DNA from: Syntrophales bacterium
Lineage (GTDB): Bacteria; Desulfobacterota; Syntrophia; Syntrophales; UBA2210
NCBI GenBank assembly: GCA_963662405.2
Contig: CAXXKT010000001.1
Coordinates: forward strand, 672,001-736,000
DNA: 64,000 nucleotides
Reading direction: 5' to 3'
Shown here: positions 5,725-61,614 of the stretch, in pieces
How positions within the stretch are numbered: position 1 is the first letter of the stretch
Layout of the letters: the number at the start of each line of letters is the position of its first letter
Made by a program: the position numbers and the translations under genes
Notes under the pieces: model-generated
What the model saw: only the letters and a program-made list of their open reading frames with translations
What the model was told of the DNA's origin: nothing
The model's database searches: none

Positions 5725-6660
5725 TCATATTGTGGCTTGTTCCGCTGTGCACGCGGGTTCTTCCGTTCCCATTTCGCATATAATGTGGCGAACCATTGAG
5801 GGATATACCTCTTGGAGGATATCAGGTGAGAGGAAGTATTCCTTGTGAAGCGCGAACGTATACTTGACCATCCGTTTGACCGTTTTTTCGACCGATCCCG
5901 CTCTGCGGTATACCGCCTTTATCATGGCGCAGAACTGATCTGACATCTGGATCGTTTTGGATATGAATTCGTTCGCCTCAGGACCGGTAATGTAGCCAAA
6001 GTGATCCGCGCACAGGTATTCAACATCCAAACGGCTTAATTTTCCGAGGCTTTTTTGAAACTCGGTGTAGTTCCAATTACCCGACGGGATAATCCCGTCC
6101 TTGAGAGGGATGCCCCCGCTGTCCGAGGGGAAGAGGGCCTTGATCTGGGGGATATAGGCGGATATGGAGCATTCGGAATGCCCCGGTGTCTCAAGGATCT
6201 CGACGTGAAATCCACCCAGATCGATGGAATCTCCTTCGAAAACGGTGATTCCATCGAGATCATTGCGCCAGAGCAGGTCGTACCGTGAAAGATCAAAGGG
6301 GGCGTTTGCCCTCTTCATTTCAATGGTATTGAACGAGTTGATTTCCTTGATTTTATCTGTGTCGTGAAGCACATCCCAGGCATGGCGTGAGGCGTAGACG
6401 GTCAGGTCTTCAAGACGTTTGCTGAACAGCGGAACGAGGCCGACATGGTCGAAGTGGCTATGGAGGATCAACAATTTTCGTATCTTGTTTACATCGATAG
6501 CGAATTCCCTGAGTTGATTCAGGACGTCGTAAGCGATACGACTCATGCCGCCGCTGATGATCATGGAACAGTCTGATCCCTCAACGAGATAGAGACCGGA
6601 TTCCTCCCGACCGAGGTACCACACGTGCTCACATATTTTTCCGGGGTTTCGGTGCCTCAT
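5725..6660 (-). CDS. MBL-fold metallo-hydrolase
   Basis: HSHFDH, TPGHS, SD and DH metal ligands. Start taken at MRHRNPGK (ATG 6660). Confidence 0.85.
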   Translation of the reverse strand: MRHRNPGKICEHVWYLGREESGLYLVEGSDCSMIISGGMSRIAYDVLNQLREFAIDVNKIRKLLILHSHFDHVGLVPLFSKRLEDLTVYASRHAWDVLHDTDKIKEINSFNTIEMKRANAPFDLSRYDLLWRNDLDGITVFEGDSIDLGGFHVEILETPGHSECSISAYIPQIKALFPSDSGGIPLKDGIIPSGNWNYTEFQKSLGKLSRLDVEYLCADHFGYITGPEANEFISKTIQMSDQFCAMIKAVYRRAGSVEKTVKRMVKYTFALHKEYFLSPDILQEVYPSMVRHIICEMGTEEPACTAEQATI

Positions 6661-6782
6661 ACGAATGTCTAAGTAGCTCCTTTCGGTTCTCTTATAATAG
6701 TTGTACCCTGCCAAAGATTGCTGTCCCGATCATGCCAACAATAAGGAAGATCTCTGCTCGTACACTGTGAGATGGGTACCTT

Positions 6783-8150
6783 TCAAGAGAGTTTTTTCCT
6801 TCGATAACGGAAGGTATGATGGTTTAAGTTGAGAAGCTTCGCCGCCTTGGATTCATTCCCCTTCGCGATACGTAATGCCTCGGAAATGTAGTAATCTTCC
6901 ACGGTGCTTTCAATCGAAGAAATATCGACCCCTTCCTCCGTCAAGGGCGGGAAAGAAAAATTCTTTGGGTCGAATGTTTCTGTTTCCACAATGCCGAGGT
7001 CATTTTTTTCTATGGATGGCTCTTGCGCTGTCAGGACGGCTCGTTCGATCATATTCTTGAGCTCTCTGATATTGCCGGTCCAGCGATGGGTTGCGAGTGC
7101 CTCAATCGCCCCATCTGAAAAGTTGGTGAATATTCTCCCGAATTTATCGGAAAAGTGAAGCAGAAAGTGGTGTGCGAGGGGAAGGATATCATCTGGACGG
7201 TCGTTCAGCGAAGGGATAGTCACGACAATGACGGCGAGGCGGAAGTACAGATCCTGGCGGAAGAGTTTGTTATCTATAAGGGTATGGAGATCTTTGTTGG
7301 TTGCGGAGACGACCCGTGTGTGCACCTGCAGCTTCGCGGTTCCCCCAACCCGATAGAACTCACCCTCTTCGAGGAAGCGAAGAAGTTTTGCCTGGGCTTC
7401 CATACTGAGGTCTCCCACTTCATCCAGGAAGAGGGTTCCTCCTCCTGCCGCCTCGATGAGGCCTTTCTTCCCGCTCGTGCTGGCACCACTGAAGGCGCCT
7501 TTCTCATATCCAAAGAGTTCGCTTTCTATCAGATCTTTCGGGATGGCCGCACAGTTGACCGTTATAAAAGGGCCCTTGAAGTTAGGACTTCTATGGTGAA
7601 TGGCGCTGGCGATCAGTTCTTTCCCGGTGCCGGTTTCACCGAGGATCAGTATCGGGGTGTCGGGGCTTTTTGCGACCATCCCGATAAACTTGAGCACATT
7701 ATGTATCTCATTGCTCTCGGCAACAAAACAGGGGATATTCTCTGCGAGATATTCTTCCTGGAGATCCTGGACTTCCTTGCGTAATCGAATCGTACTGAGT
7801 GCATTGCGAATGGTAATTTCAAGTCCATCCATGACGATGGGTTTGACGACATAATCATATGCGCCGAGCTTCATGGCGGAGATGACCGTTTGGATATCCT
7901 CGTACGCGGTGATCATAATCACCAGGATATCGTGACATTCCTTTCTGATATGGTGGAGGGCCTTGATACCGTCCATCCCGGGCAATCCAATGTCAAGGAG
8001 TATCAGGTCCGGAGGGTTTGATTGCATCGACTCGAGGGCGGATTCCGCTGTTGCGAAGGTATATATACGATATTCTGATTCAAGGGAAAAGCGGATACCG
8101 GTTCGTATTATTTCGTCGTCGTCGATGATGTATATGGAGTATTGTGTCAT
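6783..8150 (-). CDS. Sigma-54-dependent response regulator (REC-AAA+-HTH, NtrC family)
   Basis: IIDDD/LLDIGLP receiver, GETGTGKE Walker A, GAFSGA loop, LFLDE, GNIREL, C-terminal Fis-type HTH. Confidence 0.95.
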   Translation of the reverse strand: MTQYSIYIIDDDEIIRTGIRFSLESEYRIYTFATAESALESMQSNPPDLILLDIGLPGMDGIKALHHIRKECHDILVIMITAYEDIQTVISAMKLGAYDYVVKPIVMDGLEITIRNALSTIRLRKEVQDLQEEYLAENIPCFVAESNEIHNVLKFIGMVAKSPDTPILILGETGTGKELIASAIHHRSPNFKGPFITVNCAAIPKDLIESELFGYEKGAFSGASTSGKKGLIEAAGGGTLFLDEVGDLSMEAQAKLLRFLEEGEFYRVGGTAKLQVHTRVVSATNKDLHTLIDNKLFRQDLYFRLAVIVVTIPSLNDRPDDILPLAHHFLLHFSDKFGRIFTNFSDGAIEALATHRWTGNIRELKNMIERAVLTAQEPSIEKNDLGIVETETFDPKNFSFPPLTEEGVDISSIESTVEDYYISEALRIAKGNESKAAKLLNLNHHTFRYRRKKLS

Positions 8151-10207
8151 GCCGTTCGGTTCCCTTGTGTGATCGGAATCTGAAAGACAAATTCAGCCCC
8201 GCCCCACTTACTGTCATGAACCACGATTGAACCCCGATGATCGGTAACGATACGCTGGCATATGCTCAGTCCGATACCCGAACCGTCGTGTTTTGTTGTA
8301 TAAAATGGTTCGAAGATCTTGTCTCTCAGGTAATGGGGGATTCCGGGTCCCGAATCGGCGATCCTGGTAGCAATGATGCCGTTTTCACATGCCGTTGTGA
8401 TAGTGATTATTTTTTCTCCCTCTGAGTGGCTCATTGCTTCGGCGGCATTTGAAATGAGGTTTAAGATCAATTCCTCAATCAGTTGGGGGTTGAGCAGAAC
8501 GTCGGAGAGATTCCCATCGATATCCACCTCAAGTGCGATTTTACTTTTCCGCAGACTGACGGAAGAGAGTTCAACGGCATCCAGTATGGGCTTTTTTATA
8601 TTTCCTGCAATGAGTTTGTGCTCGGTCGGCTTGGAAAAATCCATAACCCGTTTGATAACGGATTCGATTTTTTTTGATGCGGAATGGATCTGCTTATAAA
8701 TTTCAGACGCATTTTCCGGAGGTCCACCTTGCTCATGGGATTTTTCAAGGAGATTCAGGTAGATGTTGATCCCCGAGAGAGGATTCCTTATTTCGTGGGC
8801 AATGCCGGCGGCCACCCGCCCCAGGGATGCCATCTTGTCCTGGATCCGCATGAGTTGGTCCACCTCCTTGCTTCTGGTGACGTCCATCATATTCAGCAGG
8901 AAGGCATCTTCCCCATCGTATTTGATCGATGTTCCATGACAGTGGACCCATCGGAAGTGTGATCCTGTATCGAGGGGAAGCAACCGAAATTCTATGTCTA
9001 TGGAGTCTGAGGCATTCGAAGCGATATCATGAAAAAGCTGTTGCACTCTATCGAGGTCCTCCGGATAAATCATTCTCAGATCGACGGGATGTATCTGCCG
9101 TTCTGGTTGCCCGAACAACCGTTGATGCTCGTGATTGCTATAGACAACGGTCTCGTCCTGGATGATGGAGATCCCTGTCGAGGCGTTTTCCGCGAGATCG
9201 CGGAATCGCTGTTCACTTTCGCGCAACCTGTCCTGGTAATTCTTATGCTCGATCAGCCGCAGCATCCCCTGCATAAGCAGCGTTAACTGCCTGACGTCCG
9301 ATTGATCATAATCTCCCTTCTTGTTCGCAACCCCTGCGATGGCATAAATCGTGTCATTGTTAAAGACAGGGATTCCCATATGCCGACTGAGTTTGACATG
9401 CCCCTTTGGATATCCTCTTTTAAAGTAATTCGGGGCGGTATAGTCGTTGGTGACGATGGGCCTGCGTTGCCGAATGGGCTCTCCCCATAATCCCATACTG
9501 TCAAGGTCAAAAATCCGGGATGGATTTTGAATTTTGGATGTCTTCGCCAAACAGGCGTACAGGGTAACCTTTTTCCCCTCTTCATCGACAAGGGCGATAT
9601 ACCCGTACCGGCTTTTCGTCAGTTTGATCCCTTCAGCGACGGCATAGTTGATGAGATCCTCGAGAGAAGCCCCGTCTGCCATCTGATTCAGTTTCAACTG
9701 TGTCTCAAGGCGCGCTTCGTCGAGGCGCAGGGCCTCTTCATTCTGTTTTCTTTCGGTGATATCAAGGTACGAGGCAATGCTTTGATTAGATCCGGCAATA
9801 ACGGCGACTGTTGCCATGATATCCTTGACATTTCCCTGCTTGTCTCTGAATTTGAATTCGTAGTTGCGTGGGACAAGTTGGGGGGCGATCCTCCGGACGG
9901 TGTGATATGCGATCATCGTATCCAGCATATCTTCATCCGCCACGAAGGTATTCCAGCTTATCTTTCCTTCCATCTCTTCCTTGGAGTAACCGGAGAGTTT
10001 TTCAAATTCACGGTTGGTTAAGGAGATGGTCATGTCGTTTTCCGAAATAATCATTGCCGTTCCGGTGTTTTCAAAAATGGTCCGGTACTTATACAGATCT
10101 GCGGTAGTGATATTCTGGTCCCTCAGCGTTTCCTCGTAGTTCAATCTCTGACGAAGTTTGTTGAGTTCACGAATCAATTGCCGTTTTGTTTTCTTTTCAT
10201 CTCTCAT
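8147..10207 (-). CDS. PAS-GAF-PAS sensor histidine kinase (cytoplasmic)
   Basis: AHEIRNPL H-box, NLISNA, DSGPGI, FEPFYTTK, GSGIGL. PAS and GAF (GHVKLSRHMGIP..VANK) domains; no TM segment. Start taken at MRDEKK. Confidence 0.93.
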   Translation of the reverse strand: MRDEKKTKRQLIRELNKLRQRLNYEETLRDQNITTADLYKYRTIFENTGTAMIISENDMTISLTNREFEKLSGYSKEEMEGKISWNTFVADEDMLDTMIAYHTVRRIAPQLVPRNYEFKFRDKQGNVKDIMATVAVIAGSNQSIASYLDITERKQNEEALRLDEARLETQLKLNQMADGASLEDLINYAVAEGIKLTKSRYGYIALVDEEGKKVTLYACLAKTSKIQNPSRIFDLDSMGLWGEPIRQRRPIVTNDYTAPNYFKRGYPKGHVKLSRHMGIPVFNNDTIYAIAGVANKKGDYDQSDVRQLTLLMQGMLRLIEHKNYQDRLRESEQRFRDLAENASTGISIIQDETVVYSNHEHQRLFGQPERQIHPVDLRMIYPEDLDRVQQLFHDIASNASDSIDIEFRLLPLDTGSHFRWVHCHGTSIKYDGEDAFLLNMMDVTRSKEVDQLMRIQDKMASLGRVAAGIAHEIRNPLSGINIYLNLLEKSHEQGGPPENASEIYKQIHSASKKIESVIKRVMDFSKPTEHKLIAGNIKKPILDAVELSSVSLRKSKIALEVDIDGNLSDVLLNPQLIEELILNLISNAAEAMSHSEGEKIITITTACENGIIATRIADSGPGIPHYLRDKIFEPFYTTKHDGSGIGLSICQRIVTDHRGSIVVHDSKWGGAEFVFQIPITQGNRTA

Positions 10208-10249
10208 CGTTTCAACTGCCTGATAGGTCGCGGTTACTGCGTTGCAGAA

Positions 10250-10265
10250 AGCAAGGAGCATGCCA
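10250..10265 (-). promoter_or_regulatory. Sigma-54 (-24/-12) promoter for the kinase/regulator genes
   Basis: Minus strand TGGCATGCTCCTTGCT is GG-N10-GC, ~43 bp upstream of the kinase ATG. Confidence 0.75.
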
Positions 10266-10542: not shown

Positions 10543-10590
10543 CAGGGGGTGGGGAGAGCTTCTATTATTGCAAAAGGATCATCAGGCGAC

Positions 10591-10983
10591 GTGAATAACC
10601 CAACGGCCCTTCATGGAACAAGAATATTGCTTATCGATGATGACCAGTGGATCAGAGACTCCATGACTTTGTACTTTGAAGCGGAAGGATGTCATGTCCG
10701 ATCTTTTGCCACGGCTGAGGAAGGCCTGCCTGTCTTTCAGGACGATATGTGGGATGTGATCATAGTCGATTATCACCTGCCGGGTATGGATGGATTGATG
10801 ATGCTCGATCAGATTCAGAACCGCCAGGAAGGAGTCATAAAGGTCCTGATTACCGCGTATACAAGTGATACGGCTATTTCACGTGCCCGTGACGTCGGTG
10901 TCAACGCTTTTATCGAAAAACCATTTACGGCGGATGACATTGAGACGACGCTTGTGCGACTGCTTCACGAGCGAAGTGCCTGA
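10591..10983 (+). CDS. Single-domain response regulator (receiver)
   Basis: LLIDDD..IVDYHLPGMDG..ITAY..FIEKPF. Start taken at GTG 10591 because the ORF-track start at 10549 falls before the likely transcription start. Confidence 0.88.
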   Translation: MNNPTALHGTRILLIDDDQWIRDSMTLYFEAEGCHVRSFATAEEGLPVFQDDMWDVIIVDYHLPGMDGLMMLDQIQNRQEGVIKVLITAYTSDTAISRARDVGVNAFIEKPFTADDIETTLVRLLHERSA

Positions 10984-11060: not shown

Positions 11061-12896
11061 ATGAATAGAAAATCTTATGTCAGATCTGTTCTTCTGATCG
11101 TAGCCGGCATACTGCTGAACCTGGGCATTACATATGTGATCGAATGCTTGGAGGGATCAGTGCCGTTCGATCATGTCGGGACTGTCTTTGTGGCAATCCT
11201 TGGCGGACCGATTGTGGGTGCTGTGGTGGGGCTGGTGAGTGTTCTGCTGTCTGCATTGCTGCAGTATGGGATTGGACTCATCGATGGGATGAACAGTGTC
11301 AACGGGGCCATATTGGGATGCCTTGTTGGCTGGCTGGCAGGACGCGGATTTTTCAAGGAATTTTGGAAAGCGATCGTCCTGGCCGTCGTGGCGGTGTTTG
11401 TGTATGCCTCCATTGTCATGCTCATTGTCACCTATGTCAGGATGACCGGATTCGGTGTGGGGTTCTGGTCCGGTATTGCCGAAGCATTCGCTTACCCCCT
11501 GGCGGTCATGAAAGATTTTATGGGGACCCTCTGGTTTGTCTTTCTCGATAAATTCTTCACCGTCCTGATCTTGTGGGCCTTTTTCAAACTGGTAGGGACG
11601 ATGCTTTTTCGGGGTGTGGCCCAAAATCCACCCACCCTTCCGGCAGCCATTAACACACAGAAGCTCGGAACAAAGCTTGCGGAAATCCCGATCGTGGGTC
11701 CTGTCTGGAAGAAGTTCGTACGTCTGGTCACTATCGTATATGTCGATTATGTTCCCCAATTTCAAAAAGGGAGCGAAACGGTAAAAACGCTCAAGACCTC
11801 GGAGGAGGAACAATACATGTTTAATCAGTACAGAGGATATGGTTTCAGATTACCGCAAAACATTTCGGAGTGGAACAAGGTCAAGGTGCAACTTGTTATC
11901 GGAACGATTCAGTTCGCCGGGGCGAATCATGATCTGCTCAATAAGGAGACAGTGGCACAACAGCTGAATCTCGGCATCGATGAAGTCACCAAGCGGATCG
12001 TCAGGATGTATAACGATCATCTTCTCTTGGTCCCCACCGATGCGGCGTTACAGACTGTTGGTTTTGCGCTGTTCTACATGGTGGTGAAACTGAAGAAGGG
12101 GACGTCTGACAAAAGGAAACAGGAAATATCAGCAATGATCCGCGACAACGATTATGCCTGCACCAGTTTTGAAACAGCGGGTGATTATGATTTCTTCCTG
12201 GGTGCTCATATTACGACCATTGATAACCTCTATAAAACTGTTTTGAAAGAGCTGTATGCCTTACCGGAGCTTGAGGAGCTGACACTGCTTCCGGTCCAGC
12301 GCATGTTGCGGCAGGAGCGTTTGAATCACTGGGATATGAAGACGGATCTGTGGCGGGAAGCGGCATTGATCGAGGGGGAATTGGATAAGCTGGCAGCGAT
12401 TCAGAGTGCACTGGACAAGACGGATCTCAAGATCCTTGAGGTGCTGATGAAGAAACGGGAGATCACCGAATATCTGAATGTCAATTTCCTGTCGAAGAAA
12501 AAAGAGGCAGGCGAGGCGATACTGCGGACACTTGATGAGAAGCGCCTTTTCGTATCACCGGTATTCCTGAATTGGATGAAGCTCAATTATAAGCCCTATT
12601 TCTTTGTCGTCAAATTCAATGAAAAGACCGACTGTGACAAAAAGATAGAACTATCGGACCATCTGGTTGAGACATATCCGGAGTTCAATCTCGCCCTTCA
12701 AGTGACTGATACTTACTATGATTTGTTCCTCGGGAGTTATCAAGGATTGGCGAATGTCGAGGCCGTGAAGAAGGCACTCAAAGAAACACCGGGAGTTGAA
12801 GATGTCAGAGAGATGGTTGCGACACGGCAGCATCGGATGTGGACGACCAAACTATCGGAAGAGAACTGGGGTGAATGCGTCATGATGTGGGAGTAG
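11061..12896 (+). CDS. ECF S-component-like membrane domain fused to tandem Lrp/AsnC-like (wHTH + ferredoxin-like) domains; function unknown
   Basis: N-terminal ~180 aa has ~5-6 hydrophobic segments with PFDHVGTVFVAILGGPIVGAVVG..FLDK. C-terminal part has VAQQLNLGIDEVTKRIVRM, FETAGDYDF and LDKTDLKILEVL, and is paralogous to 15956-17137. Confidence 0.6.
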   Translation: MNRKSYVRSVLLIVAGILLNLGITYVIECLEGSVPFDHVGTVFVAILGGPIVGAVVGLVSVLLSALLQYGIGLIDGMNSVNGAILGCLVGWLAGRGFFKEFWKAIVLAVVAVFVYASIVMLIVTYVRMTGFGVGFWSGIAEAFAYPLAVMKDFMGTLWFVFLDKFFTVLILWAFFKLVGTMLFRGVAQNPPTLPAAINTQKLGTKLAEIPIVGPVWKKFVRLVTIVYVDYVPQFQKGSETVKTLKTSEEEQYMFNQYRGYGFRLPQNISEWNKVKVQLVIGTIQFAGANHDLLNKETVAQQLNLGIDEVTKRIVRMYNDHLLLVPTDAALQTVGFALFYMVVKLKKGTSDKRKQEISAMIRDNDYACTSFETAGDYDFFLGAHITTIDNLYKTVLKELYALPELEELTLLPVQRMLRQERLNHWDMKTDLWREAALIEGELDKLAAIQSALDKTDLKILEVLMKKREITEYLNVNFLSKKKEAGEAILRTLDEKRLFVSPVFLNWMKLNYKPYFFVVKFNEKTDCDKKIELSDHLVETYPEFNLALQVTDTYYDLFLGSYQGLANVEAVKKALKETPGVEDVREMVATRQHRMWTTKLSEENWGECVMMWE

Positions 12897-12964: not shown

Positions 12965-14191
12965 GTGACAAGCTTCAAGCAGTTTGCAGCACGACAGGCA
13001 TTAAAATTTTATCCTGATTTTCCGGAAGAATTTATAGAATACCTGGTTGAAAAACTTCGATGGGAAAGACTTGGATGGTTCCAGGGGAGAGTGATTATTA
13101 ATTCATATTTCCCTCCCATTCCCAGCAGGGCCGTGAATAGTGTCGTGAAGGCCTGGCGTTCAGGGATGAAGGGACGGGTTGTCCCCGAGGTAGCCACGGT
13201 AGCCGTGACCAATAAATGTCCTTATAACTGTCTGTATTGCAGCGTTCCTGACAAGACCGTCAGCGATATGTCTGCAGATCTTCTCAAACGTACGATCGGG
13301 CAGATCCAGGATATGGGAAGTTTCCATATCTCATTGACCGGCGGAGAACCGCTGTTACGCGATGATCTTGAAGATATTATCGCCTCCGTAGACGATCGCT
13401 CCGTGGTAAAGCTCTTTACGACAGGGTATTCTTTGACGAAAGAGCGGGCAAAGGCACTGAAAAAAGCGGGGCTCTTCTCGATCAACATCTCTCTCGACAG
13501 CGGTGATCAAGACATTCACGACCATGGGTGTGGATTTGATGGGGCATTCGATATCGCGTTGCGGGCGATCGAACATGCGAAACAGGCATCTCTCCTGACC
13601 TGCGTGGCGACTGTGGCGTCGCACAACGGTGTCTTGGGTGGAGAAATGAATCAGTTCTTGCGGTTTCTAAAAAAACAAGGTGTCGATGAGGTGTCGATAT
13701 TTGAACCGGCACCGACGGGGAAAATGTCGTTTCATGAGGAACTGCTCTTGAGTGATGACGAGCGAGAGGCATTGCACGATCTGCATAAGGAGATCAACGA
13801 AAGCGCGGACAAGAGATATCCGCGGGTCTTTTCATTCCCCTATGTGGAAGGCGCGGATTATATGGGATGTGGGGCCGGTTGCACACGGTTACATGTGACC
13901 GCACTGGGCCACGTGACGCCCTGTGATTTCACCTCGATTTCGTTCGGAAATATTCAACGAGAAAACATTGAAACGATATGGGACCGGATGAAGAGGTATT
14001 TCAATCAGCCGGACTGCGGTTGTTTTATATGCCATAATTTCAAGGAATTGAGAGGCATGTATGACGATCGGTCCGGTATGGCTGATGGTGATATGCTGGT
14101 AAAGAGAGGTAAGATGATGAAGGAAAGTCATCCACCGGCATTTTATAAATTGTTGATGGTGACGCAAGATACAAAACCAACGATATTTTAG
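12965..14191 (+). CDS. Radical SAM enzyme with SPASM/twitch C-terminus
   Basis: CPYNCLYC, TGGEPLLR, SLD; C-terminal CGAG..G.VTPC..GNI..C.CFIC. Confidence 0.92.
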   Translation: MTSFKQFAARQALKFYPDFPEEFIEYLVEKLRWERLGWFQGRVIINSYFPPIPSRAVNSVVKAWRSGMKGRVVPEVATVAVTNKCPYNCLYCSVPDKTVSDMSADLLKRTIGQIQDMGSFHISLTGGEPLLRDDLEDIIASVDDRSVVKLFTTGYSLTKERAKALKKAGLFSINISLDSGDQDIHDHGCGFDGAFDIALRAIEHAKQASLLTCVATVASHNGVLGGEMNQFLRFLKKQGVDEVSIFEPAPTGKMSFHEELLLSDDEREALHDLHKEINESADKRYPRVFSFPYVEGADYMGCGAGCTRLHVTALGHVTPCDFTSISFGNIQRENIETIWDRMKRYFNQPDCGCFICHNFKELRGMYDDRSGMADGDMLVKRGKMMKESHPPAFYKLLMVTQDTKPTIF

Positions 14192-14201
14192 GAGGAACGA
14201 C

Positions 14202-14450
14202 ATGTCGAATGAGAATGAGGGGAAAATTATAGCAATTATTGCCGAAGTGTTTGAAATGAGTAAGAAAGCAGTGACGAGAGACAAGGATTTCGTCAAGGAT
14301 TTCAAGGCAAAATCGATCAAAATCATAGAGATGTGTGCGATGCTCGAAGATGAGTTCGATATTGAGATCGATATGGAAGACGCGCGAAAAAATGCGACGG
14401 TTGGTGAAGCTATTGACTATACGCTGGAACTTATCGATGCGCAACAGTGA
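14202..14450 (+). CDS. Acyl carrier protein (atypical phosphopantetheine motif)
   Basis: 82 aa; FVKDFKAKSIKIIE..LEDEFDIEI..TVGEAIDY; RBS AGGAGG; acpS nearby. Confidence 0.85.
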   Translation: MSNENEGKIIAIIAEVFEMSKKAVTRDKDFVKDFKAKSIKIIEMCAMLEDEFDIEIDMEDARKNATVGEAIDYTLELIDAQQ

Positions 14451-14468: not shown

Positions 14469-15482
14469 GTGACGCTCTTAATGGAGAAGAATAATACATT
14501 CATAGATGATTTGAAGGTTCGTGTCCAGGGAAAAGGAATACGGGTTGTGTTCCCTGAAGCCGAAGAACCTCGTATCCTGAAAGCCGCATCGATCGCACGG
14601 GCTCAAAATATCGCCATTCCCATACTGGTAGGAGATCCGCAAAAGGCACATGATATTGCAAAAGACCACGGCATCGATATTACCGGGATGGAGATCATTC
14701 TTCCCGAGGAATCCGTACAGTTTGATGCCTATGCGGAGACATATCGTGCATCAACGACACTCCGCGAGGGAGCTGTGAGAAGATTGTTAAAAAAACCGGT
14801 TTTCTACGCGGATATGATGGTGAAGGTGGGAGATGCGGATGCCATGGTCGGCGGTGCGGTGTACGAAACGGCGACCGTGATTATGGCGGGAACCATGGTA
14901 ATCGGGATGAAAGAGGGAGCATCCACTCCGTCGAGTTTCTTTGTCATGGATATCCCCGGATTTGAAGGAGGAGAGAACGGCAAACTCATATTCGCGGATT
15001 GTGCTGTGGTCCCGGACCCGAGTGCCGAGGAGTTGGCTGACATCGCCATAGCGAGTGCGGATAGTGCGAAAAAGCTCCTGGGTTGTGTTCCCCGGGTCGC
15101 CATGCTCTCGTTTTCGACGAAGGGGAGCAGCCTGGAGCCCCCGGTTGAAAAGGTTATTCGTGCAACGGAAATAATCAAGGAACGGAGGTCGGATATATTG
15201 GTGGACGGGGAATTACAGGTAGATACCGCCATTGTTCCCGCGATCGCTCAGAAAAAGATCAAGGGGAAAAGCCCCGTTGCCGGTCAGGCCAACGTACTGA
15301 TCTTCCCGGATTTGAACTCGGGGAACATCGGGTACAAACTGGTCCAGCGCCTGGCGGGGGCCGACGCGATCGGTCCTCTCTTGCAGGGATTTGCGAAACC
15401 GGTGTGTGATCTGTCCCGCGGTGCAACCGTGGAGGATATCATTGGTTCGATCGTAATGACGGCGATACAGGCGATCGATTAG
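14469..15482 (+). CDS. pta: Phosphate acetyltransferase / phosphotransacylase
   Basis: VFPEAEEPR, FADCAV, AMLSFSTKGS, DGELQ.D, GNIGYKLVQRL, DLSRG. Confidence 0.92.
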   Translation: MTLLMEKNNTFIDDLKVRVQGKGIRVVFPEAEEPRILKAASIARAQNIAIPILVGDPQKAHDIAKDHGIDITGMEIILPEESVQFDAYAETYRASTTLREGAVRRLLKKPVFYADMMVKVGDADAMVGGAVYETATVIMAGTMVIGMKEGASTPSSFFVMDIPGFEGGENGKLIFADCAVVPDPSAEELADIAIASADSAKKLLGCVPRVAMLSFSTKGSSLEPPVEKVIRATEIIKERRSDILVDGELQVDTAIVPAIAQKKIKGKSPVAGQANVLIFPDLNSGNIGYKLVQRLAGADAIGPLLQGFAKPVCDLSRGATVEDIIGSIVMTAIQAID

Positions 15483-15492: not shown

Positions 15493-15882
15493 GTGAATCC
15501 CGTGATTTATGGTGTTGGGATCGATATCGAAAAAAAAGATCGTTTGCGAAAGGCATTGGAGCTCAATGAGCGGGCGTTTCTGAAGTATGTGTTCGCCCCG
15601 CAGGAGGTGTCCTATGCACGGAGGCAGGAGGATCTGGTGTCGCATCTGACGGCTATTTTTTCTGCGAAAGAAGCGGTTCTCAAGACCGTGGGTACCGGTT
15701 GGAAAGGCGGGGTCAGGTTGACCGATATTGAGATCTGCCATGATTCTCATGGGAAGCCGGAGGTCGTCTTGTCCGGGAATCTTCAAAGGATAGCTGCCTC
15801 ACGTCATATCACGACAATCATGGTGTCGCTTTCTTATGAGGATACCTATGCGGTTTCTTACGCCGTCGCCCTGACCGGGTAA
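15493..15882 (+). CDS. acpS: Holo-ACP synthase
   Basis: GVGIDI, FSAKEAVLK.VGTG, GKPEV, VSLSYE..YAVS. Confidence 0.9.
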   Translation: MNPVIYGVGIDIEKKDRLRKALELNERAFLKYVFAPQEVSYARRQEDLVSHLTAIFSAKEAVLKTVGTGWKGGVRLTDIEICHDSHGKPEVVLSGNLQRIAASRHITTIMVSLSYEDTYAVSYAVALTG

Positions 15883-15955: not shown

Positions 15956-17137
15956 ATGGGAAAGATTCAAAAAAGATTTGGGTTGCTGTTTGCATTGATT
16001 GTTGCGTGTGTCTTTTTAGTGAGTGTCTCGGTTGTCGGCGCGGAAGATAAGTATTACTGGCCGCCTGAGAGAGGCTACCATAAGCTTTTACCGTTTGCGA
16101 AAGAGTATCTGAAGAAGGAAAACACATCGGGCTATGCATTGGCCAAGGCAACGAGAACGGCGGATATCGTCAACCTCGACTATGTGACGCAAAAGGTAGG
16201 GATCAGCAAGAAAGAGGCGGCAAAACGAATTAACAGAATGTTCGACGAGCACCTCATTCGACTGACGGCGGATTCTCCCATCGATAATCGAGGATTCGGA
16301 CTTTATTATACCGCTATAAAGCTGAAACCCGAAGCAACCCCGGAACAGAAGGCGAAACTATCCGAGATTATGCAGAATGAAGATCATGTCTGCACCGGGT
16401 ACGAGGTGGAAGGTGACTTTGACTTTGTTCCGGCGTTCCATGTGACGACACTGGAGGTGTCCGAAAAATATGTCAGGTCCTATTTCGAAAAGTCAGGTGT
16501 CCTTGAGTCGTATCAGTTGCTTCCCATTCAGAGAATTCTCCGTCAGGAACGTATTAATCATTGGGGTGCTCCGATTTCGATGTGGAATGAGGTCGTATAT
16601 GCCCCCAACGAATTCGAAAAACTTGCCAAGATCCAGGACAAACTGGATATAACGGACCTGAAGATCATAGAGGCGATGCAGGAAAAACGAGCGGCAAAGG
16701 ATTTTTACAACTGGGATTTTGTTGCCAAGAAGACCGGTCTCAAAAAAGACGGCCTGATCAATGGACTTGAGCACGCCTGGGCTGAGCGGATGTTTGTGCT
16801 GCCGGTTTTTATGAACTGGATGAAATTAGGGTACACGAATCACATCTTCTTCGTCAAGATGAGCAGGAAGCTGACCTCGGATGAGAAACTCGCAATCGGT
16901 GACAAATTTGCTGAAAATCCTTCATTTAATCTGGTTTTCCAGTTCAACGACTGTGAGTTCACCTATGCCCTTGGCGCCTGGACAAAACTGACCGACATCG
17001 ATGCCCTCAGAGATGCAATCAAGGGTGTCAGTGGTGTAGAGGGAATCAAGGAAGTCAACCTGACCAGACAGTGGAGGCAGTGGACGTGCCGCCTGGATGA
17101 TGACAACTGGGATAACTGCAAGTATTGCGTCGATTAA
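15956..17137 (+). CDS. Signal-peptide-bearing tandem Lrp/AsnC-like protein; function unknown
   Basis: MGKIQKRFGLLFALIVACVFLVSVSVVGA/EDK is a Sec-like leader. Body has KVGISKKEAAKRINRM, YEVEGDFDF and LDITDLKIIEAM. Shares LP.QR.LRQER.NHW, PVF.NWMKL.Y and RQ.R.WT..L...NW with 11061-12896. Confidence 0.6.
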   Translation: MGKIQKRFGLLFALIVACVFLVSVSVVGAEDKYYWPPERGYHKLLPFAKEYLKKENTSGYALAKATRTADIVNLDYVTQKVGISKKEAAKRINRMFDEHLIRLTADSPIDNRGFGLYYTAIKLKPEATPEQKAKLSEIMQNEDHVCTGYEVEGDFDFVPAFHVTTLEVSEKYVRSYFEKSGVLESYQLLPIQRILRQERINHWGAPISMWNEVVYAPNEFEKLAKIQDKLDITDLKIIEAMQEKRAAKDFYNWDFVAKKTGLKKDGLINGLEHAWAERMFVLPVFMNWMKLGYTNHIFFVKMSRKLTSDEKLAIGDKFAENPSFNLVFQFNDCEFTYALGAWTKLTDIDALRDAIKGVSGVEGIKEVNLTRQWRQWTCRLDDDNWDNCKYCVD

Positions 17138-17238: not shown

Positions 17239-18459
17239 ATGAATATCCTGACGTTTAACTGCGGAAGCTCATCGCTGACGTACAAGATATTTCGAGCCGG
17301 GTCCGATGACGATATAGAGATCGCCGTATCCGGAAAGGCTCACCGTGTCGGTGTTACCGGAAGTGAACCATCTTTCATTGAACACAACTATAACGGACAA
17401 TATGAAAAAAATACACTGCCCATAGCGAGTCATCGGGAAGCCGCGGCGCTTGTATTTCAATATGTAAAAAAAAACGGCATACCCATTGACCTTATCGGTC
17501 ACCGGTTTGTTCATGGTGCAACATATTTCCCGAGGACCGCGATCATTACGGATGAAGCGTTAGAGACGCTTGAAATTTGCCTTCCTTTTGCCCCCCTGCA
17601 CAATCCTATCTCCATGAGTGTCATTAAAGAGTCACGCGCGACGCTCCCTTCGGTGAAGGAATATATTACATTTGACGGGGCATTTCATTCAACCATACCG
17701 GATTATGCCTATACCTATGCGCTACCGGATGAGGTTATCGAACAATATGGATACCGGAAATACGGTTTTCACGGTTTATCCTTCCAGTATGTCAGTGGGG
17801 AATCGGCACGATTTCTGAACGTCCCGCTGGAAGAGTTGAAGTTGGTGATGTGTCATCTCGGTACCGGGGGATCAAGCGTCTGTGCCGTAAAAGACGGTTA
17901 TTCCATAGACAATTCTCTCGGATACACGCCTCTCCCGGGGCTCATCATGAGTACCAGATCGGGTGACATCGATCCAATGGCCGTCATCTTTCTGATGAAC
18001 AACTATGGATATACCCCGGATAACCTGGAGGCCCTTTTGAACAAAAAGGGGGGAATCTTGGGAATATCAGGATTCTCGAGTGATCCGCGCGATATTATCG
18101 AAGCGATCAAGACGGATGAGACAAAACGGGATATCGCACAGCTCGCCCTTGATATGTATGTACAACGGCTGAAAAAATATATCGGCGCCTATATTGCGGT
18201 CATGGGGGGGATTGATGCACTGGTATTTACCGATGATGTCGGGGTCCTGAGCGCGGTGATACGGGAAGAGGTGTGCAAGAGCATGGGCTGGTGCGGAGTT
18301 GAGCTTGATTATGATCTCAATCGAACCGTCGACCCGAAACAGGATTCCATCGTGAGTACGGAGCAATCAAAGGTATACGTCATGACGGTTCCCACAGCCG
18401 AAGAACTGGTTATCTGCCGGGAGGGCCTGAAACTACAAAGAGAAGGAGAAGCAGCATGA
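17239..18459 (+). CDS. ackA: Acetate kinase family protein with Entamoeba-type (PPi-dependent) signatures
   Basis: NCGSSSLTYK, GHRFVHG, APLHNP, KYGFHGLS, HLGTGGSS, TRSGDIDP, FTDDVG, TAEEL. Confidence 0.9.
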   Translation: MNILTFNCGSSSLTYKIFRAGSDDDIEIAVSGKAHRVGVTGSEPSFIEHNYNGQYEKNTLPIASHREAAALVFQYVKKNGIPIDLIGHRFVHGATYFPRTAIITDEALETLEICLPFAPLHNPISMSVIKESRATLPSVKEYITFDGAFHSTIPDYAYTYALPDEVIEQYGYRKYGFHGLSFQYVSGESARFLNVPLEELKLVMCHLGTGGSSVCAVKDGYSIDNSLGYTPLPGLIMSTRSGDIDPMAVIFLMNNYGYTPDNLEALLNKKGGILGISGFSSDPRDIIEAIKTDETKRDIAQLALDMYVQRLKKYIGAYIAVMGGIDALVFTDDVGVLSAVIREEVCKSMGWCGVELDYDLNRTVDPKQDSIVSTEQSKVYVMTVPTAEELVICREGLKLQREGEAA

Positions 18460-19499
18460 TTGTAATTTTTGATCCTCAGCCGCCTTTCATCCGATGGTAC
18501 AAAATGACAGAGAGCGGCTTCACAGAGAAGCAGTGTATATATCAGAACGGTTGGGAAAAAGAAGTCTCGGCTGATCTCGAAGGGATCACCGGTGCCGCCT
18601 ATGTCTTGTATAACGGGGGCGATGAAATCGTCACATCACCGGTCACTATTGATCGGAGTCTTATGGCAACAGTTGAAAAGACTGTTCCCTTGTCACCTGA
18701 GCGTAATAAGATGACCCTTGAGGCAATTCGTTACTGCTATGAACAGATGCCCGGAATTCGGCATACCATTGTCTGTGAAACGGCATTGTATGGTGCCCTC
18801 CCGCCAAAATCCCGAAATTATGCAGTCCCCCTGGAACTCAGAGAGAAGGGAATAAAGCGCTACGGTGGATATGGGCTGGAACATGGATACATGGTGGAAA
18901 AGGTAAAACCGGTATTAGGAGATGCGCATCATAAGGTGATCAGTGTCTTCCTGGGGCCTGAAACCAATGTGACGGCCTTTGAAGATGGCTGTCCATTGGA
19001 GACATCAATCGGTTTTAGTACTGCGGAGGGGATCCCTTCCCTCCATGGTTGCGGTGATACCGACGCCTCGTTTGTCTTTCTGATGCAGGAGGCCGGTTGG
19101 GCACTCAAGGATATCGCCCCGGTTTTTTCTCAAAAAGGTGGACTCTGTGCGTTGATGGGAAAAGAAGATAGTACCTTAGGCGATATCCTCCATGCCGGAG
19201 TAGACACTATCGCCTACAAGGTGCTCCGATATTCCGTAATAAAATATATGGGAAATGCTGTCGCGCAACTGAGAGGGGCTGATGCCTTTCTCATACACGG
19301 CGAGAATCCGATTAAAACGGTGGGGCCGTTTATTCGGGATGTATGCCGGAATTTTGAGTTCATCGGCCTGACCTGTGCAGAGACAGATGAAGAATTGCCG
19401 GGAGGTTTGTTCATTCTTTCCGGGAAAGAATCATCGATAAAGGTGTTGTATGTCCAGTGCGCCAGGCCCGAACTGCTCGGAACATGCGTCAATCAGTAG
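18456..19499 (+). CDS. Degenerate acetate kinase-like protein (catalytic motifs lost)
   Basis: Colinear with AckA but YVLYNGG replaces HRVVHGG, CETALY replaces FDTAFH, KRYGGYGLEH replaces RYGFHGxSH, and FLGPET replaces HLGNG. ATGA overlap with ackA. Confidence 0.75.
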   Translation: MIVIFDPQPPFIRWYKMTESGFTEKQCIYQNGWEKEVSADLEGITGAAYVLYNGGDEIVTSPVTIDRSLMATVEKTVPLSPERNKMTLEAIRYCYEQMPGIRHTIVCETALYGALPPKSRNYAVPLELREKGIKRYGGYGLEHGYMVEKVKPVLGDAHHKVISVFLGPETNVTAFEDGCPLETSIGFSTAEGIPSLHGCGDTDASFVFLMQEAGWALKDIAPVFSQKGGLCALMGKEDSTLGDILHAGVDTIAYKVLRYSVIKYMGNAVAQLRGADAFLIHGENPIKTVGPFIRDVCRNFEFIGLTCAETDEELPGGLFILSGKESSIKVLYVQCARPELLGTCVNQ

Positions 19500-20612: not shown

Positions 20613-20673
20613 TGCTAATATGCTTTTCAGCAGTCGCGGTTTTTTCTGGTCCGCTGTAAAAGTCTTGTTAGGC
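20613..20673 (-). mobile_element. Integron attC-like recombination site (R' degenerate)
   Basis: Minus strand GCCTAAC-AAGAC-TTTTACAGCGG..CTGCTGAAAAG-CAT-ATTAGCA; 61-bp imperfect hairpin whose R'' overlaps the stop codon of the DUF2971 gene. Confidence 0.7.
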
Positions 20674-21486
20674 TATTTTGCTACATTCAATTTCGTATCG
20701 TGTTTTTGAAATAGATATGCCATAAACCTCAGCATCCAGTCCATTTTTATGCACTATGTCTATTACTTCTGATTCTAAATTTGGAGCAGCATGCGCACCA
20801 ATATAAATACTTTTAATGCTGTCTTTGGGAATATCGAACAGATAAATTGGATACCCTGATTCATCTACGTTTGGCGACCTTTTAGTGCGTTCAGTAAAAA
20901 TCCTGAGCACCCTTACTTCTTCTTCATACGCCCAGTCGATTGGTTTTTCACACAACAACTTCTCATAGTAATCAAAGTCTTGCAGGGTAGGAGCGCTACG
21001 TTGCTTGGTATATCTTACTTGGCTTGGGCATGTTCCAAGGCCAAGATATGATTTTTGATAAAAGAATTCATGTGATTCATCGAAACCAATCACAAAACCT
21101 TTGTGGCGATCGGCATAATGAGTCCACATCAATAAATTACTAAATGTTCTTGAAAGAGAAAGTATACCGATCCTTTTATTTAACCAATCCATCAGTTCAC
21201 GTCCCACATTTGATGAGGACATTTTTTCAAGGAGATGAGATTTTAATGATCGAACTTCTTCATCCAATATTTTACAGTTCTCTGATGTTTTTTCTTCACC
21301 TACCGTGTTTTCACACAAATCAAATCTGTAACGTTCTATTTGATCCATTAAATCACTAATACTAGAACTCATGTCTATCAAAGGTGACCCCTCAAAAGGA
21401 TCATTTAATGCTCTAGGCTGGGAAAATCGAATCTCTAAATTCTTCAGAACTTGGACTCTATTTGGAGGTAAGTATTTATAAAACAT
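20668..21486 (-). CDS. DUF2971 domain protein (gene-cassette cargo)
   Basis: YKY..LNDPFE, LSLS...NLLMWTHYADRHKGFVIGFD, K...WAYEEEVR, IYIG. Markedly AT-rich relative to flanks. Confidence 0.85.
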   Translation of the reverse strand: MFYKYLPPNRVQVLKNLEIRFSQPRALNDPFEGSPLIDMSSSISDLMDQIERYRFDLCENTVGEEKTSENCKILDEEVRSLKSHLLEKMSSSNVGRELMDWLNKRIGILSLSRTFSNLLMWTHYADRHKGFVIGFDESHEFFYQKSYLGLGTCPSQVRYTKQRSAPTLQDFDYYEKLLCEKPIDWAYEEEVRVLRIFTERTKRSPNVDESGYPIYLFDIPKDSIKSIYIGAHAAPNLESEVIDIVHKNGLDAEVYGISISKTRYEIECSKIA

Positions 21487-32663: not shown

Positions 32664-34077
32664 TTACGCCACCGGCATCGAGAGGTTCCTCTTGTCTCTC
32701 CGGATCTGGTAGTTCCGGACCATGGCGTAGGTCTTCATGGCACGCTCCGGCGATTCAAAGAAGGGGAGACCGGCGTCGAAGAAGGTCTGAATGGCATCCG
32801 CATCGAGACCGGGGATCTTGACGGCGACAAAGGGCTTCCCCGTCTCTTTCCGTATCCGGATCATGGCGTCGGCATAGTGCCTGTTCACCTCGGGGAGAGA
32901 GGCCGATTCCCATCACAACCACGGCATCCACACCGGGGTCCTCGGCAACCGCCCTGGCCGCATTGATATAGAGATCAATGTCGAGAGAAGAGGTCAGTCC
33001 GATATCTATGGGATTGTTCAGGCTGGTACCGGTCGGAGGAATAACACCCGCCAATTTGGATCGGGTCTCGGGAGCTATCGAAGCCAACCTGAGCCCTGCG
33101 GTTCCACAGGCCTCCGCCGCCGAGACTGCCAGTCCACCGGGTCCCGAGATGATGACCATCCGGTCCCCCAGGTGTGGAGGGAGGAGGGAAAAGCCGATCA
33201 GGGCATCAACCCATTCCTCGAATCCCGTCACCGGGACGGCACCGGTCTGCCGGACCACCCCTTCCCATATCTCACGGGAACCCGCGAGCGCGCCGGTATG
33301 TGAGGCGGCGGCGCGGCTCCCCTCCGGCGTCAGACCCACCTTCCAGACAATCACCGGTTTTCTGACCGACGCCTCGTATAGGGCCCTGAGAAACCGCGGC
33401 CCATCTTTGATCCCCTCCAGGTAGGTGCCGATCACCTCCGTGTCGGGATCCTTCCCAGGTAGGTCAGAAAATCGGCGGCGTTGAGGTCGCACTCATTGCC
33501 GAGGCTGACGGCCTTGCTGAACGAGAGACCCTTCTCAGGCCCCATGCGGCACAGAATATTCCCCAGCGAGCCGCTGTGGGAGATAAGGCCGATCGGCCCC
33601 GGGGTGTGGGAGAGCCCCGGAAAGTATGAGAGGCCCGTCCGGGGCGCATACAGCCCCATGCAGTTGGGCCCGATGATCCTCATCCCGGAGGCCTGCGCGA
33701 TGTGAGTCAGTTCGGCCTCCATCGCTTTTCCCTCATCGCTCCCCGTTTCCTTGAAACCGGCGGTAAAGAGGATCGCCCCCTTGAGCTCTTTGTCCGCGCA
33801 TTCCCGAACGATGGGAAGCGCGCGGTCGTGGGGGACGAGGATGATGGCGAGATCAACAGGGCCGGGGATTGCCGAAACGGAGGGGTATGCCTTCAGCCCG
33901 TCGATCTCATCCGCCGTGGGGTGGACGGGATAAATGACCCCCGGGGAAACCCTGATCGATCAGGGCCATGAGGAAGAGCTTCCCCGTCTTCATCTCCTTC
34001 GGCACACCGACAATGGCGACGGACGCGGGATTGAAAATCGCTTCAAGCCGGGTCGTCAGAATATCGGTGCCGTTCAT
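32664..34077 (-). CDS. Acyl-CoA synthetase (ADP-forming) alpha-type CoA-binding protein, frameshifted
   Basis: FNPASVAIVG, IIGPNCMG, SHSGSLG, SLGNECD, YLEGIKDG, AAASHTGALAG, NPIDI, spread over several frames. Confidence 0.8.
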
Positions 34078-36015: not shown

Positions 36016-36135
36016 CAGAGAGAGACAGAACGATCCTCAGGATCGTGTGAAACGGGTATGATGCTCATCATTTTCCCTGATGCCCTTTCGAGAGTCGTAC
36101 GGAGCTGAAGTGATATTCCCCATGGAGAGAGAATC

Positions 36136-54610: not shown

Positions 54611-56155
54611 TTACTCCCATTCAATGGTGCTGGGCGGTTTTGAACTGATGTCGTAGACGACGCGGTTCACCCCCGCAACTTCGTTGATTATCCGCGAGGA
54701 TATGCGGCCCAGGACATCATACGGGATCCGTGCCCAGTCCGCCGTCATTGCGTCCTGGCTGGTAACGGCCCTCAGGGCCACCACATTGGCGTAGGTTCGT
54801 TCGTCCCCCATTACCCCGACGCTCTTGACGGGGAGGAGGACGGCGAAGAATTGCCATATCTCGTGGTCCGTATCGTAGCGCTCGATCTCCTCCCGGACGA
54901 TTAGGTCCGCATTGCGGAGGATGGCGAGGTCATCCGCAGTTATCTCGCCGATAAGACGGACTCCCAGACCCGGCCCCGGGAAAGGCTGGCGGAGGAGGAG
55001 ACGCTCGGGCAGCCCCAATTCTCTTCCAAGGAGACGGACCTCGTCCTTGAACAGTTCCTTGAGCGGCTCGATCAACTCGAAGTTCAGGTCTTCCGGAAGT
55101 CCCCCGACGTTGTGGTGGCTCTTGATGGTCGATGAAGGCCCCCCCGAGGGGGGATCTACTCTCGATGATATCGGGGTAAAGTGTCCCCTGCGCGGAGAAA
55201 CCTTGCCCCCTGCACCTCCACCGCCGCATCGGCGAAGACATCAATGAAGGTCTTCCCGATGATCTTCCGTTTGGTCTCGGGGTCGGTCACCCCCTTCAGT
55301 GCGGCAAGAAACCGGTCCGCGGCATCGACGATTCGGAAATCGAGGGGATATTCTTTCGTGAACAAGGCATGGATTTCCTCGACCTCTCCTTCCCGGAGGA
55401 GACCGTTATCGACGAAGATGGCCTTCATCCGGTCCCCGATGGCTCGGTGTAAGAGCGCCGCCGCAACCGATGAGTCGACACCGCCTGAAAGACCACAGAT
55501 CACCGTTTGATCGCCGACCATACCCCCTGATCCTGGTGACCGATTCTTCGATGAAGCGCCCCATCGTCCATCCCCCCGTGCAGGAGGCGACACCAAACAG
55601 GAAATTCCCGAGGATATCGAGCCCCTGCGGGGTATGCACGACCTCGGGGTGAAATTGGATACCGTATATCTTCCGGTCGATGTCGGCCATAGCCGCGATG
55701 GGGCAACCCGCGGTCCCCCGCCAGGACCTCGAATCCTTCGGGAGGAATGGTCACCTGATCTCCGTGGCTCATCCAGACATCAAGAGCGGTGGGCAGATCG
55801 GCGAAGATACCGACAGGATGCGGGATCTCTATCCGGGCAGGTCCATACTCCCCGCTCTTTCCCTTCTCCACGGTCCCCCTCCATGATCCGTGCCATGAGT
55901 TGCATCCCGTAGCAGATCCCCAGGACGGGGATCCCCATCCTCAGGATACGCCGGTCCATCCGGGGGTGACCGGACTCAAAGACCGAGGAGGGTCCGCCGG
56001 AGAGGACAATCGCCGCGGGGTTCATTTGCAACAGGTCATCCTCAGGAGGTGTCGTGTCGGACGATTTCGCAGTACACGCCGAGCTCGCGGATCCGCCTGG
56101 CGATCAGCTGTGCGTACTGCGAACCGAAATCAAATACTGCTACCATTTCTTCCAT
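54611..56155 (-). CDS. guaA: GMP synthase (glutamine-hydrolysing), multiple frameshifts
   Basis: [60 protein letters not shown], across frames. Confidence 0.92.
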
Positions 56156-56156
56156 A

Positions 56157-57252: not shown

Positions 57253-57254
57253 CC

Positions 57255-59137: not shown

Positions 59138-59260
59138 AACCTCTTTCCTGCCCTCTTAAAACTTGCTCACACGCGGCTGTCGTCTGAGCAGTATATCTCC
59201 CTCACCGGGACGCCCCTCCACCGTCCCGGGGTGCTCCGTGGATTCGGGAGACCGTCTCTC

Positions 59261-61548: not shown

Positions 61549-61598
61549 CTCCACCTCCCGTCGCGATTGATAAGGGCGTACCGTAAACACCCTCCGCA

Positions 61599-61614
61599 AG
61601 CAATATTGATACCA
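61599..61614 (-). promoter_or_regulatory. Sigma-54 (-24/-12) promoter upstream of dapF
   Basis: Minus strand TGGTATCAATATTGCT is GG-N10-GC, ~50 bp before the start. Confidence 0.65.

Follow-up and report, generated by a model that had tools for sequence, protein, structure and literature searches.

We analysed a stretch of 64,000 nucleotides (hereafter the window) from the Syntrophales bacterium assembly GCA_963662405.2 (contig CAXXKT010000001.1, positions 672,001 to 736,000 of the forward strand). The gene under study encodes a 611-amino-acid protein in which a membrane domain with the fold of the S-components that belong to energy-coupling factor (ECF) transporters is fused, through a linker, to a C-terminal module made of two Lrp-like units. 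A paralogue of the same module, preceded by a signal-peptide-like sequence, is encoded downstream, and the genes of a radical SAM enzyme, an acyl carrier protein (ACP), a phosphotransacetylase (PTA) and a holo-ACP synthase (AcpS) lie between the two (Table 1).

Table 1. Features of the fusion gene, its paralogue and the neighbouring genes (positions in the window)
Feature	Position	Strand	Remarks
Fusion gene: S-component-fold membrane domain, linker and tandem Lrp/NirDL-fold module	11061..12896	+	611 aa, intact ORF
S-component-fold domain, aa 3-188	11067..11624	+	Six-helix core, helix 1 without AxxxA
Linker, aa 189-246	11625..11798	+	Charged helix at aa 214-235 is conserved and, judged by hydropathy, does not span the membrane; model confidence low
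Tandem Lrp module, aa 249-611	11805..12893	+	Predicted cytoplasmic; conserved C367, T368, G374, D377, H383, P411, R417, N422, R592, W594
Codon of Cys367	12159..12161	+	Proposed nucleophile (inferred)
Codon of His383	12207..12209	+	Proposed partner of Cys367 (inferred)
Paralogous tandem Lrp module	15956..17137	+	Aa 1-29 signal-peptide-like; Cys146 and His162 retained; export predicted
Radical SAM/SPASM enzyme	12965..14191	+	Cassette-specific clade; no named family over cut-off
Dedicated ACP	14202..14450	+	AKS serine motif; three other PF00550 matches elsewhere in genome
PTA	14469..15482	+	Sole tblastn match in genome
Holo-ACP synthase, AcpS family	15493..15882	+	Second copy elsewhere in genome
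Acetate kinase, PPi-type (pyrophosphate) motifs	17239..18459	+	HLGTGGSS and FTDD; best solved relative Entamoeba ACK 4H0O
Degenerate acetate-kinase-like protein	18456..19499	+	Without GSSS motif; 4-nt overlap with ackA
Stand-alone receiver protein before fusion	10549..10983	+	Same position in L021, L046
Divergent PAS/GAF histidine kinase, sigma-54 response regulator and metallo-beta-lactamase-fold gene	5725..10261	-	Same arrangement in L021, L046

The C-terminal part of the fusion and the paralogue share 35% sequence identity over 365 amino acids (BLASTP, E 8e-79; fusion residues 249-606 with residues 45-403 of the paralogue's 408-aa reading), and their Smith-Waterman score of 628 compares with a maximum of 61 for 300 shuffles. 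The paralogy recognized by eye in the initial annotation is thereby confirmed, and the motifs quoted there are present. The paralogue frame is intact, its best start being the ATG at 15956, which gives 393 amino acids with a GAGAGGAG ribosome site. The module consists of two Lrp units in one chain, as indicated by an internal repeat score of 74 (shuffled mean 31, not reached by any of 500 shuffles). Fourteen other 90% clusters, found among the best 8000 candidates, carry the whole fusion with 59-82% identity, so the fusion is no assembly artefact. P0021 and P0066 are fusions of greater distance, and a more distant cluster includes members named Thermococci and Methanomicrobia archaeon. The Thermovirga protein P0017 starts at the linker and lacks the S-fold domain, being either a split form or a short gene call, and a second weak PF12822 match in genome G000 (C2:292961-293365) lies within a 391-aa frame that could encode another S-fold fusion.

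The AlphaFold2 model of the fusion, built on 79 sequences, has a pLDDT of 88 and is of low confidence only at residues 189-246 and at the last residues. Its residues 5-182 match ECF S-components, with RibU (5kbw) at Z 14.5 (rmsd 3.2, 161 residues aligned), all of the top eight structural matches of the domain being S subunits and the values for RibU, FolT and ThiT ranging from Z 13 to 14.5. The S-component-like N-terminus first proposed from the letters is thus borne out at the level of the fold, although its sequence stays under the Pfam threshold for PF12822 (25.7 bits versus 30.7), and the objection foreseen at that time, an N-terminus without this fold, falls away. As had also been noted, no T or ABC-ATPase family was detected among the 49 open reading frames scanned in the window. 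Helix 1's AxxxA motif, which is the T-binding criterion of S-components in the available part of PMC11109136, is absent from all 18 fusions and from all six stand-alone S-fold copies, and the only T gene (PF02361) of the window's genome, which is 100% complete, is cbiQ inside cbiMNQO; ECF coupling of the fusion is therefore unlikely from its sequence and gene content. Relatives have one T gene each in other operons, or none, and two cassette genomes encode a T protein and an ATPase beside another S-like gene. The six-helix fold is also that of the solitary S-components BtuM and BioY, which move their substrate without a motor (PMC11109136, same part), BtuM also modifying it through a Cys (available part of PMC6072759). 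The fusion differs from all these S-components in lacking AxxxA and any conserved Cys within the membrane domain, and in having a 420-residue cytoplasmic extension and an exported partner protein. A likeness in layout is also seen in the 5TMR-LYT receptors, where an S fold without AxxxA has its helix 6 running into cytoplasmic domains, and one homologue of the fusion gives a weak match to PF07694. The fusion differs from these receptors in that helix H0 is absent, the model beginning at H1, and in having none of the kinase, GGDEF, MCP or phosphatase domains as its output (a Pfam scan of the fusion matched neither kinase nor GGDEF nor MCP families).

According to the available part of PMC11109136, helix 6 of an S fold runs out on the cytoplasmic side. 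The Lys/Arg counts in the loops of the fusion, none after H1 and H3, three after H4 and six after H6, fit a cytoplasmic end of this helix, although two are found in the long outer loop after H5. No further membrane helix follows H6 in any of the 18 fusions (19-residue hydropathy windows of at most 1.42), hydropathy alone being a soft test since H4 itself scores only 1.14. The linker helix was considered as a seventh membrane helix and rejected on its hydropathy and its 3-4 charged residues. At the N-terminus of the paralogue and of nine relatives, basic residues precede a hydrophobic stretch of 2.35-3.16, compared with at most 1.43 for 47 soluble members, and in the bacterial exported copies an Ala-x-Ala-like site, read by eye, ends this stretch. 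P0072 and L048 carry a membrane anchor and a Thr-rich linker, a feature that we take to resemble archaeal binding proteins. Since helix 6 ends in the cytoplasm with no later membrane helix and the paralogue has a signal-peptide-like start, the fused module is predicted to be cytoplasmic and the paralogue exported, on opposite faces of the membrane. The initial annotation had taken both proteins to be targeted to the envelope, which agrees with the S-fold membrane domain of one and the signal-peptide-like N-terminus of the other, and had left the side of the Lrp part to a topology prediction.

For the module (fusion residues 294-611) the top Foldseek match is the fused siroheme decarboxylase NirDL (4ch7, E 4e-9), and comparison with NirDL 4czc gave Z 12.8 (rmsd 4.8, 233 residues aligned), which supports the Lrp/Ahb-like assignment made initially, where the presence of two units had been missed. 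The module shares with NirDL and with the AhbA-AhbB pair a tandem scaffold of helix-turn-helix (HTH) and RAM domains, two Lrp units forming one cavity, and conserved residues placed on the same hairpin; the HTH plus RAM fold is also that of the Lrp/AsnC regulators. According to the available part of PMC4145669, AhbA and AhbB have one Lrp unit each and pair into one cavity, which is faced by an HxYxR motif holding the catalytic Arg. In the family studied here the HxYxR positions correspond to T368, Y/F370 and T372, a Cys-His pair being found instead, and HxYxR occurs anywhere in the module in only one of 79 sequences, off position. Because these positions hold T, Y/F and T, the family is not one of siroheme decarboxylases. 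The NCBIfam AhbA model scores 18.9 bits on the module, against a cut-off of 140 and 158 for a true ahbA (C1:349832); the window's genome has its own ahbA and ahbB elsewhere, and, unlike in those systems, no heme genes are found among the recurring neighbours of the module, which also has exported and membrane-fused forms.

The ten positions listed in Table 1 are conserved in at least 90% of 79 sequences. Cys367 and His383 are present in 77 of the 79 across four deep clades, both missing from the same two sequences, and the pair is absent from six tandem-Lrp outgroup proteins. They lie at opposite ends of a hairpin (strands 366-374 and 378-384) that matches the HxYxR hairpin. Of the two shared features pointed out at first, the CT motif holds family-wide (Cys in 77/79); the terminal Cys is found in only 73%, and the divergent exported clade lacks it. 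The module retains the G-D-x-D loop, and the second HTH has a 5-residue gap in the fusions and an acidic start of its recognition helix.

In a profile search of 1.84 billion representatives, 52 proteins, including many fragments, scored at E 1e-10, and below a drop came ordinary tandem Lrp proteins. A quick tree, with long branches and no bootstrap, recovers one family (SH-aLRT 100) with four deep clades, namely fused, window-type exported, divergent exported and soluble; the family thus occurs in three forms, S-fold-fused, exported and soluble. Most homologues are unfused and cytoplasmic, as the annotation had considered in the event that its proposal failed, but they look like enzyme partners and not like the regulators it had in mind. 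Neither the fusion nor the window paralogue scores above the cut-off of any Pfam or NCBIfam family, and four other members likewise stay below that of every NCBIfam family; P0021 is barely over the PF01037 cut-off along 67 residues. By sequence comparison, the module is an unannotated family. No account of the family, the fusion or the cassette was found in the full text searched, most subscription journals lying outside its coverage; AsnC and Lrp are absent from the main text of PMC11109136, whose supplementary table of 5TMR domains could list an AsnC fusion.

The soluble form places the module in a second genomic context. In 82 of 93 loci among the matches listed, many gut loci being near-identical, the gene following the soluble module, mostly within a few bases, encodes the alpha subunit of an ADP-forming acyl-CoA synthetase (ACD); the remaining 11 comprise nine loci cut off by the end of a contig, the broken L024, and L060 as a true exception. 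A reverse search found the module upstream of 11/11 alpha genes of the clade (three of them already-known loci) and of 0/13 ordinary ACDs. The partner alpha, whose best solved relative is 4xyl (E 1e-101), stays under the TIGR02717 cut-off and forms its own clade with a long stem. Its catalytic His is present in 28/28 sequences, as in the alpha subunit of the alpha2 beta2 ACDs, within a loop that reads HTASEN in 27/28 and in none of 15 other ACD-like proteins of the window's genome. Unlike in those ACDs, no beta was found in ten genomes: ATP-grasp_5 gives a single full-length match, a 412-aa frame of Succiniclasticum that adjoins a succinyl-CoA-ligase-alpha-like match, and two partial matches that reach the cut-off lie in 900-aa frames. 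An ACD alpha alone can exchange acyl-CoA and acyl-phosphate, which is the PTA reaction. As the catalytic His is kept and no beta was found, the partner alpha could act like a PTA, and in both contexts the module would therefore have an acyl-thioester/acyl-phosphate exchanger as its partner.

Module and alpha correlate at r 0.75 in a mirror-tree comparison, which shows joint inheritance only, and a complex prediction for the soluble module with the ACD alpha scored 0.01, a value that we count neither way. A membrane pyrophosphatase gene follows the alpha gene at 6 of 33 non-redundant loci, one of them a remnant; it lies directly after the module-alpha pair in L007, L008, L015, L022, L092 and L169, from Bacillota and a Bacteroidales genome, and L008 has a second copy 8 kb upstream. 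Regulators encoded in the operons across loci are sigma-54 activators, TetR proteins and two-component genes. There was no plasmid match for the soluble module and no module-plus-alpha fusion, the longest of the 52 representatives at E 1e-10 having 607 aa, with no search aimed at longer proteins. In L096 (1062-2375) the soluble module gene contains one in-frame TGA and is followed by an intact alpha gene. The two-gene operon is present in the cultured anaerobes Clostridium bovifaecis, Syntrophomonas wolfei subsp. methylbutyratica and Dethiosulfatarculus.

For four alpha genes (63-64% identity) within the same alpha clade (support 100, stem 1.16), the upstream slot of the module is taken by a GAPDH-family gene, before which comes an Ldh_2-type dehydrogenase gene. 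All four genomes encode another, better-scoring GAPDH elsewhere, and two also contain a module-alpha operon. GAPDH forms a thioacyl-cysteine with the help of a His and releases an acyl-phosphate. By analogy, this slot swap is the best hint to the role of the module's Cys and His. An operon of Ldh_2-type dehydrogenase, second GAPDH, beta-less ACD alpha and membrane protein, seen in L172 (5469-9108) and also in L151, L152, L162 and L163, is a candidate aldehyde-to-acyl-CoA route. Arsenic detoxification, brought up by the score of the swapped GAPDH on the ArsJ-associated model, was rejected (the score is 296, cut-off 450, and no ars gene recurs), as was a glyoxalase-type route from an oxoaldehyde to a hydroxyacyl thioester, which fits the DhaR-like regulators and the Ldh_2 neighbour and found no direct support.

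Among eight loci with a full-length fusion, ACP and PTA genes are found in seven, the exported paralogue in seven and the radical SAM gene in six; AcpS and acetate kinase are usual, and the sequence of L044 ends before any paralogue could appear. L048, which looks archaeal by its sequence likeness, holds an anchored paralogue, fusion, ACP and PTA within 4.4 kb. At seven loci a stand-alone S-fold gene, absent from the window's genome and about 40% identical to the N-terminus of archaeal-type fusions (two tested), adjoins a divergent exported copy. The cassette is rare, being found in 5 of 301 genomes of the order, this one counted, in 0/7 others of the genus and in 0/400 others of a phylum sample, and its G+C content is 0.47-0.51, compared with 0.57-0.59 in most flanking genes. 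Radical SAM orthologues of at least 56% identity are confined to the four cassette genomes having that gene; eight other relatives share 36-39% identity and have longer frames, the two examined ending in a methyltransferase-like domain. The acetate kinase is of the PPi type at 5 of 12 membrane-type loci and of the ordinary ATP type at five, two having both. The window kinase (17239-18459) is closest to the PPi-dependent Entamoeba enzyme, sharing its extra Gly in PHOSPHATE2 and Asp in the ADENOSINE motif, and differs in being paired with a degenerate copy. The Asp-Asp variant of the ADENOSINE motif found here has been reported for Anaerolineaceae, PPi use by this bacterial kinase type being untested according to the available part of PMC5517563.

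Because the top fold match is an enzyme, the Cys-His pair is conserved, and either ACP and PTA or the ACD alpha adjoin the module, we tentatively favour, at a little under even chances, the proposal that the module transfers acyl groups through a thioacyl-cysteine and acts here as a two-sided membrane relay. This comes close to the membrane-bound enzyme that the initial annotation had offered as one of its options. The tandem Lrp module would be an enzyme on the NirDL/AhbAB scaffold with a new Cys-His site, where Cys367 would take an acyl group as a thioester in exchange with an acyl-phosphate, acyl-ACP or acyl-CoA pool. The S-fold domain may serve as a motor-free site that binds a small molecule and hands it over. 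The outer face would be served by the exported paralogue and the inner face by the fused module. PTA, ACP and AcpS would pass the acyl group from phosphate to carrier or back, its carrier-bound form would be modified by the radical SAM enzyme, and the PPi-type kinase would close the phosphate balance. Inward capture appears somewhat the likelier direction, outward acylation as in the Dlt system being somewhat the less likely one. Acyl relays of the Dlt and Pat/Alg kind combine an activating enzyme, a dedicated ACP, a membrane protein and an outer-face enzyme; the likeness is one of logic and an analogy only, since the cassette has no MBOAT, adenylation or SGNH protein and the folds are unrelated. 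A farther-reaching version, which we regard as possible rather than probable, would make the cassette a class of group translocation: the exported enzyme would capture an acyl group on its Cys, the S fold would pass it on, the fused copy would deliver it to phosphate or ACP and the energy would be kept as PPi, while the same family with its beta-less alpha would form an acyl-phosphate pathway in gut and sediment anaerobes.

Several points weigh against the acyl-transfer proposal. The weakest link is the exported copy, which would have neither acyl-phosphate nor CoA at hand and would need an outside substrate or a shuttle. The catalytic role of the module is suggested by sequence features that indicate no substrate, and the Cys367-His383 contact is presumed from the secondary structure of the model. 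Two loci do not follow the pattern: L060 has an intact soluble module and no alpha gene, and the 14.9 kb of L043 include the fusion and an exported copy but none of the ACP, PTA and radical SAM genes. The GAPDH swap was probably one event, as the GAPDH-paired alphas form one clade. Finally, the ten genomes of the beta search come without completeness figures, only three of the records being titled complete or chromosome.

The module could alternatively be a phosphotransfer subunit that replaces the ACD beta and moves the phosphate of the alpha His to Pi, yielding PPi for the membrane pyrophosphatase, and that in the window traps the solute of the S fold by phosphorylation, in the manner of the phosphotransferase system. 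The missing beta, the HTASEN loop peculiar to the partner alpha, the pyrophosphatase genes, the PPi-type kinases and the conserved Arg417, Arg592 and Asn422, which could hold a phosphate, all accord with it. We nevertheless find it doubtful: the GAPDH-paired alphas share the HTASEN loop in an operon without the module, the PTA and kinase of the window already yield PPi or ATP, the exported copies keep the same residues where there is no phosphoryl donor, and a match to membrane pyrophosphatase is missing from three of the five small genomes that were tested.

A role in ligand binding only is likewise rather unlikely. The exported form would then be a binding protein, the fusion an S-fold transceptor or receiving site, and the soluble form would present the ligand to the alpha. 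Lrp RAM domains do bind effectors, in keeping with the G-D-x-D loop, and the anchor and Thr-rich linker of P0072 and L048 recall archaeal binding proteins. The S fold is a receptor domain in 5TMR kinases, also without AxxxA (available part of PMC11109136). A near-invariant Cys-His pair, however, is no Lrp feature and is missing from the tandem-Lrp outgroup, the fusion has no known signalling output domain, and the GAPDH swap favours catalysis over binding.

The AhbA/AhbB-like heteromer suggested in the initial annotation does not hold up well. It would gather both paralogues on one side of the membrane, which their shared operon, the exported copy at 7/8 full-length fusion loci and a topology that is only predicted leave some room for; as each chain already equals AhbA plus AhbB, like NirDL, and opposite faces are predicted, it is both unneeded and very unlikely, the more so as different genomes draw their exported partner from two clades that are unrelated, and the soluble operons hold one copy. 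Hardly more credible is a membrane-tethered Lrp-type transcription regulator of the operon: two regions resemble an HTH, LysM and AsnC regulators are matched weakly and the nearest relatives outside the family are tandem Lrp proteins, but DNA is out of reach for the exported copies, the second HTH of the fusions has its gap, the operons have regulators of their own and the soluble members have their gene tied to that of an enzyme. A conventional ECF vitamin transporter with its S subunit here and its motor encoded elsewhere is the least credible, for although the fold and the T and ATPase genes of two cassette genomes would suit it, AxxxA is lacking, the single T gene belongs to cbiMNQO and a 40 kDa cytoplasmic tail seems hard to reconcile with toppling.

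Returning to the thioacyl-cysteine proposal, each fold is known and the combination matches no system that we found. Siroheme decarboxylases are, to our knowledge, the only Lrp-fold enzymes, so that the module, if the proposal is right, would bring a second chemistry to this scaffold as well as an exported variant of a fold familiar from proteins that bind DNA. The S-component fold gains a new type of partner, the boundary between transporter, receptor and enzyme being an open question there, and a tight clade of ACD alpha subunits seems to work without beta. The two-gene soluble operon of cultured anaerobes makes the chemistry testable without membrane work. The weight we give the finding rests on architecture and context, from which the mechanism is proposed.

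Other observations concern the cassette and its surroundings. A PPi-type kinase with an overlapping degenerate copy is also found in L021, L042, L044 and L046, with a divergent FolE2-like gene next in three, and the degenerate copy is detected at E 1e-60 in 2/301 genomes of the order, both of which carry the cassette. Outside the cassette, the radical SAM enzyme is nearest to fusions of about 670 aa with a methyltransferase-like domain (L131-L138). L021 holds a truncated window-type exported paralogue (11201-11524, 107 aa) and an intact divergent one in the same genome, which suggests that the two exported clades replace each other. An AhpD/CMD-family gene with a CxxC motif stands beside three membrane cassettes (L010 2326-2949, L041 318-944, L044 5403-6008), and its product could keep the module Cys reduced. 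Scans for sigma-70, terminator and sigma-54 signals gave results at or near chance, with no sigma-54 site before the fusion. Elsewhere in the window, housekeeping genes are in pieces at 32755-33492 and 54611-61599 (an ACD-like gene, guaA, aspS and purF, with carA and dapF short), which suggests indel errors in the assembly; the cassette genes are intact. Just past the cassette, a DUF2971 gene (20668-21486) with a G+C content of 0.36 is likely foreign. At 34438-42369, a gene whose product has an endosialidase chaperone (Peptidase_S74) domain lies in front of one for a 2077-aa protein of fibronectin-III repeats.

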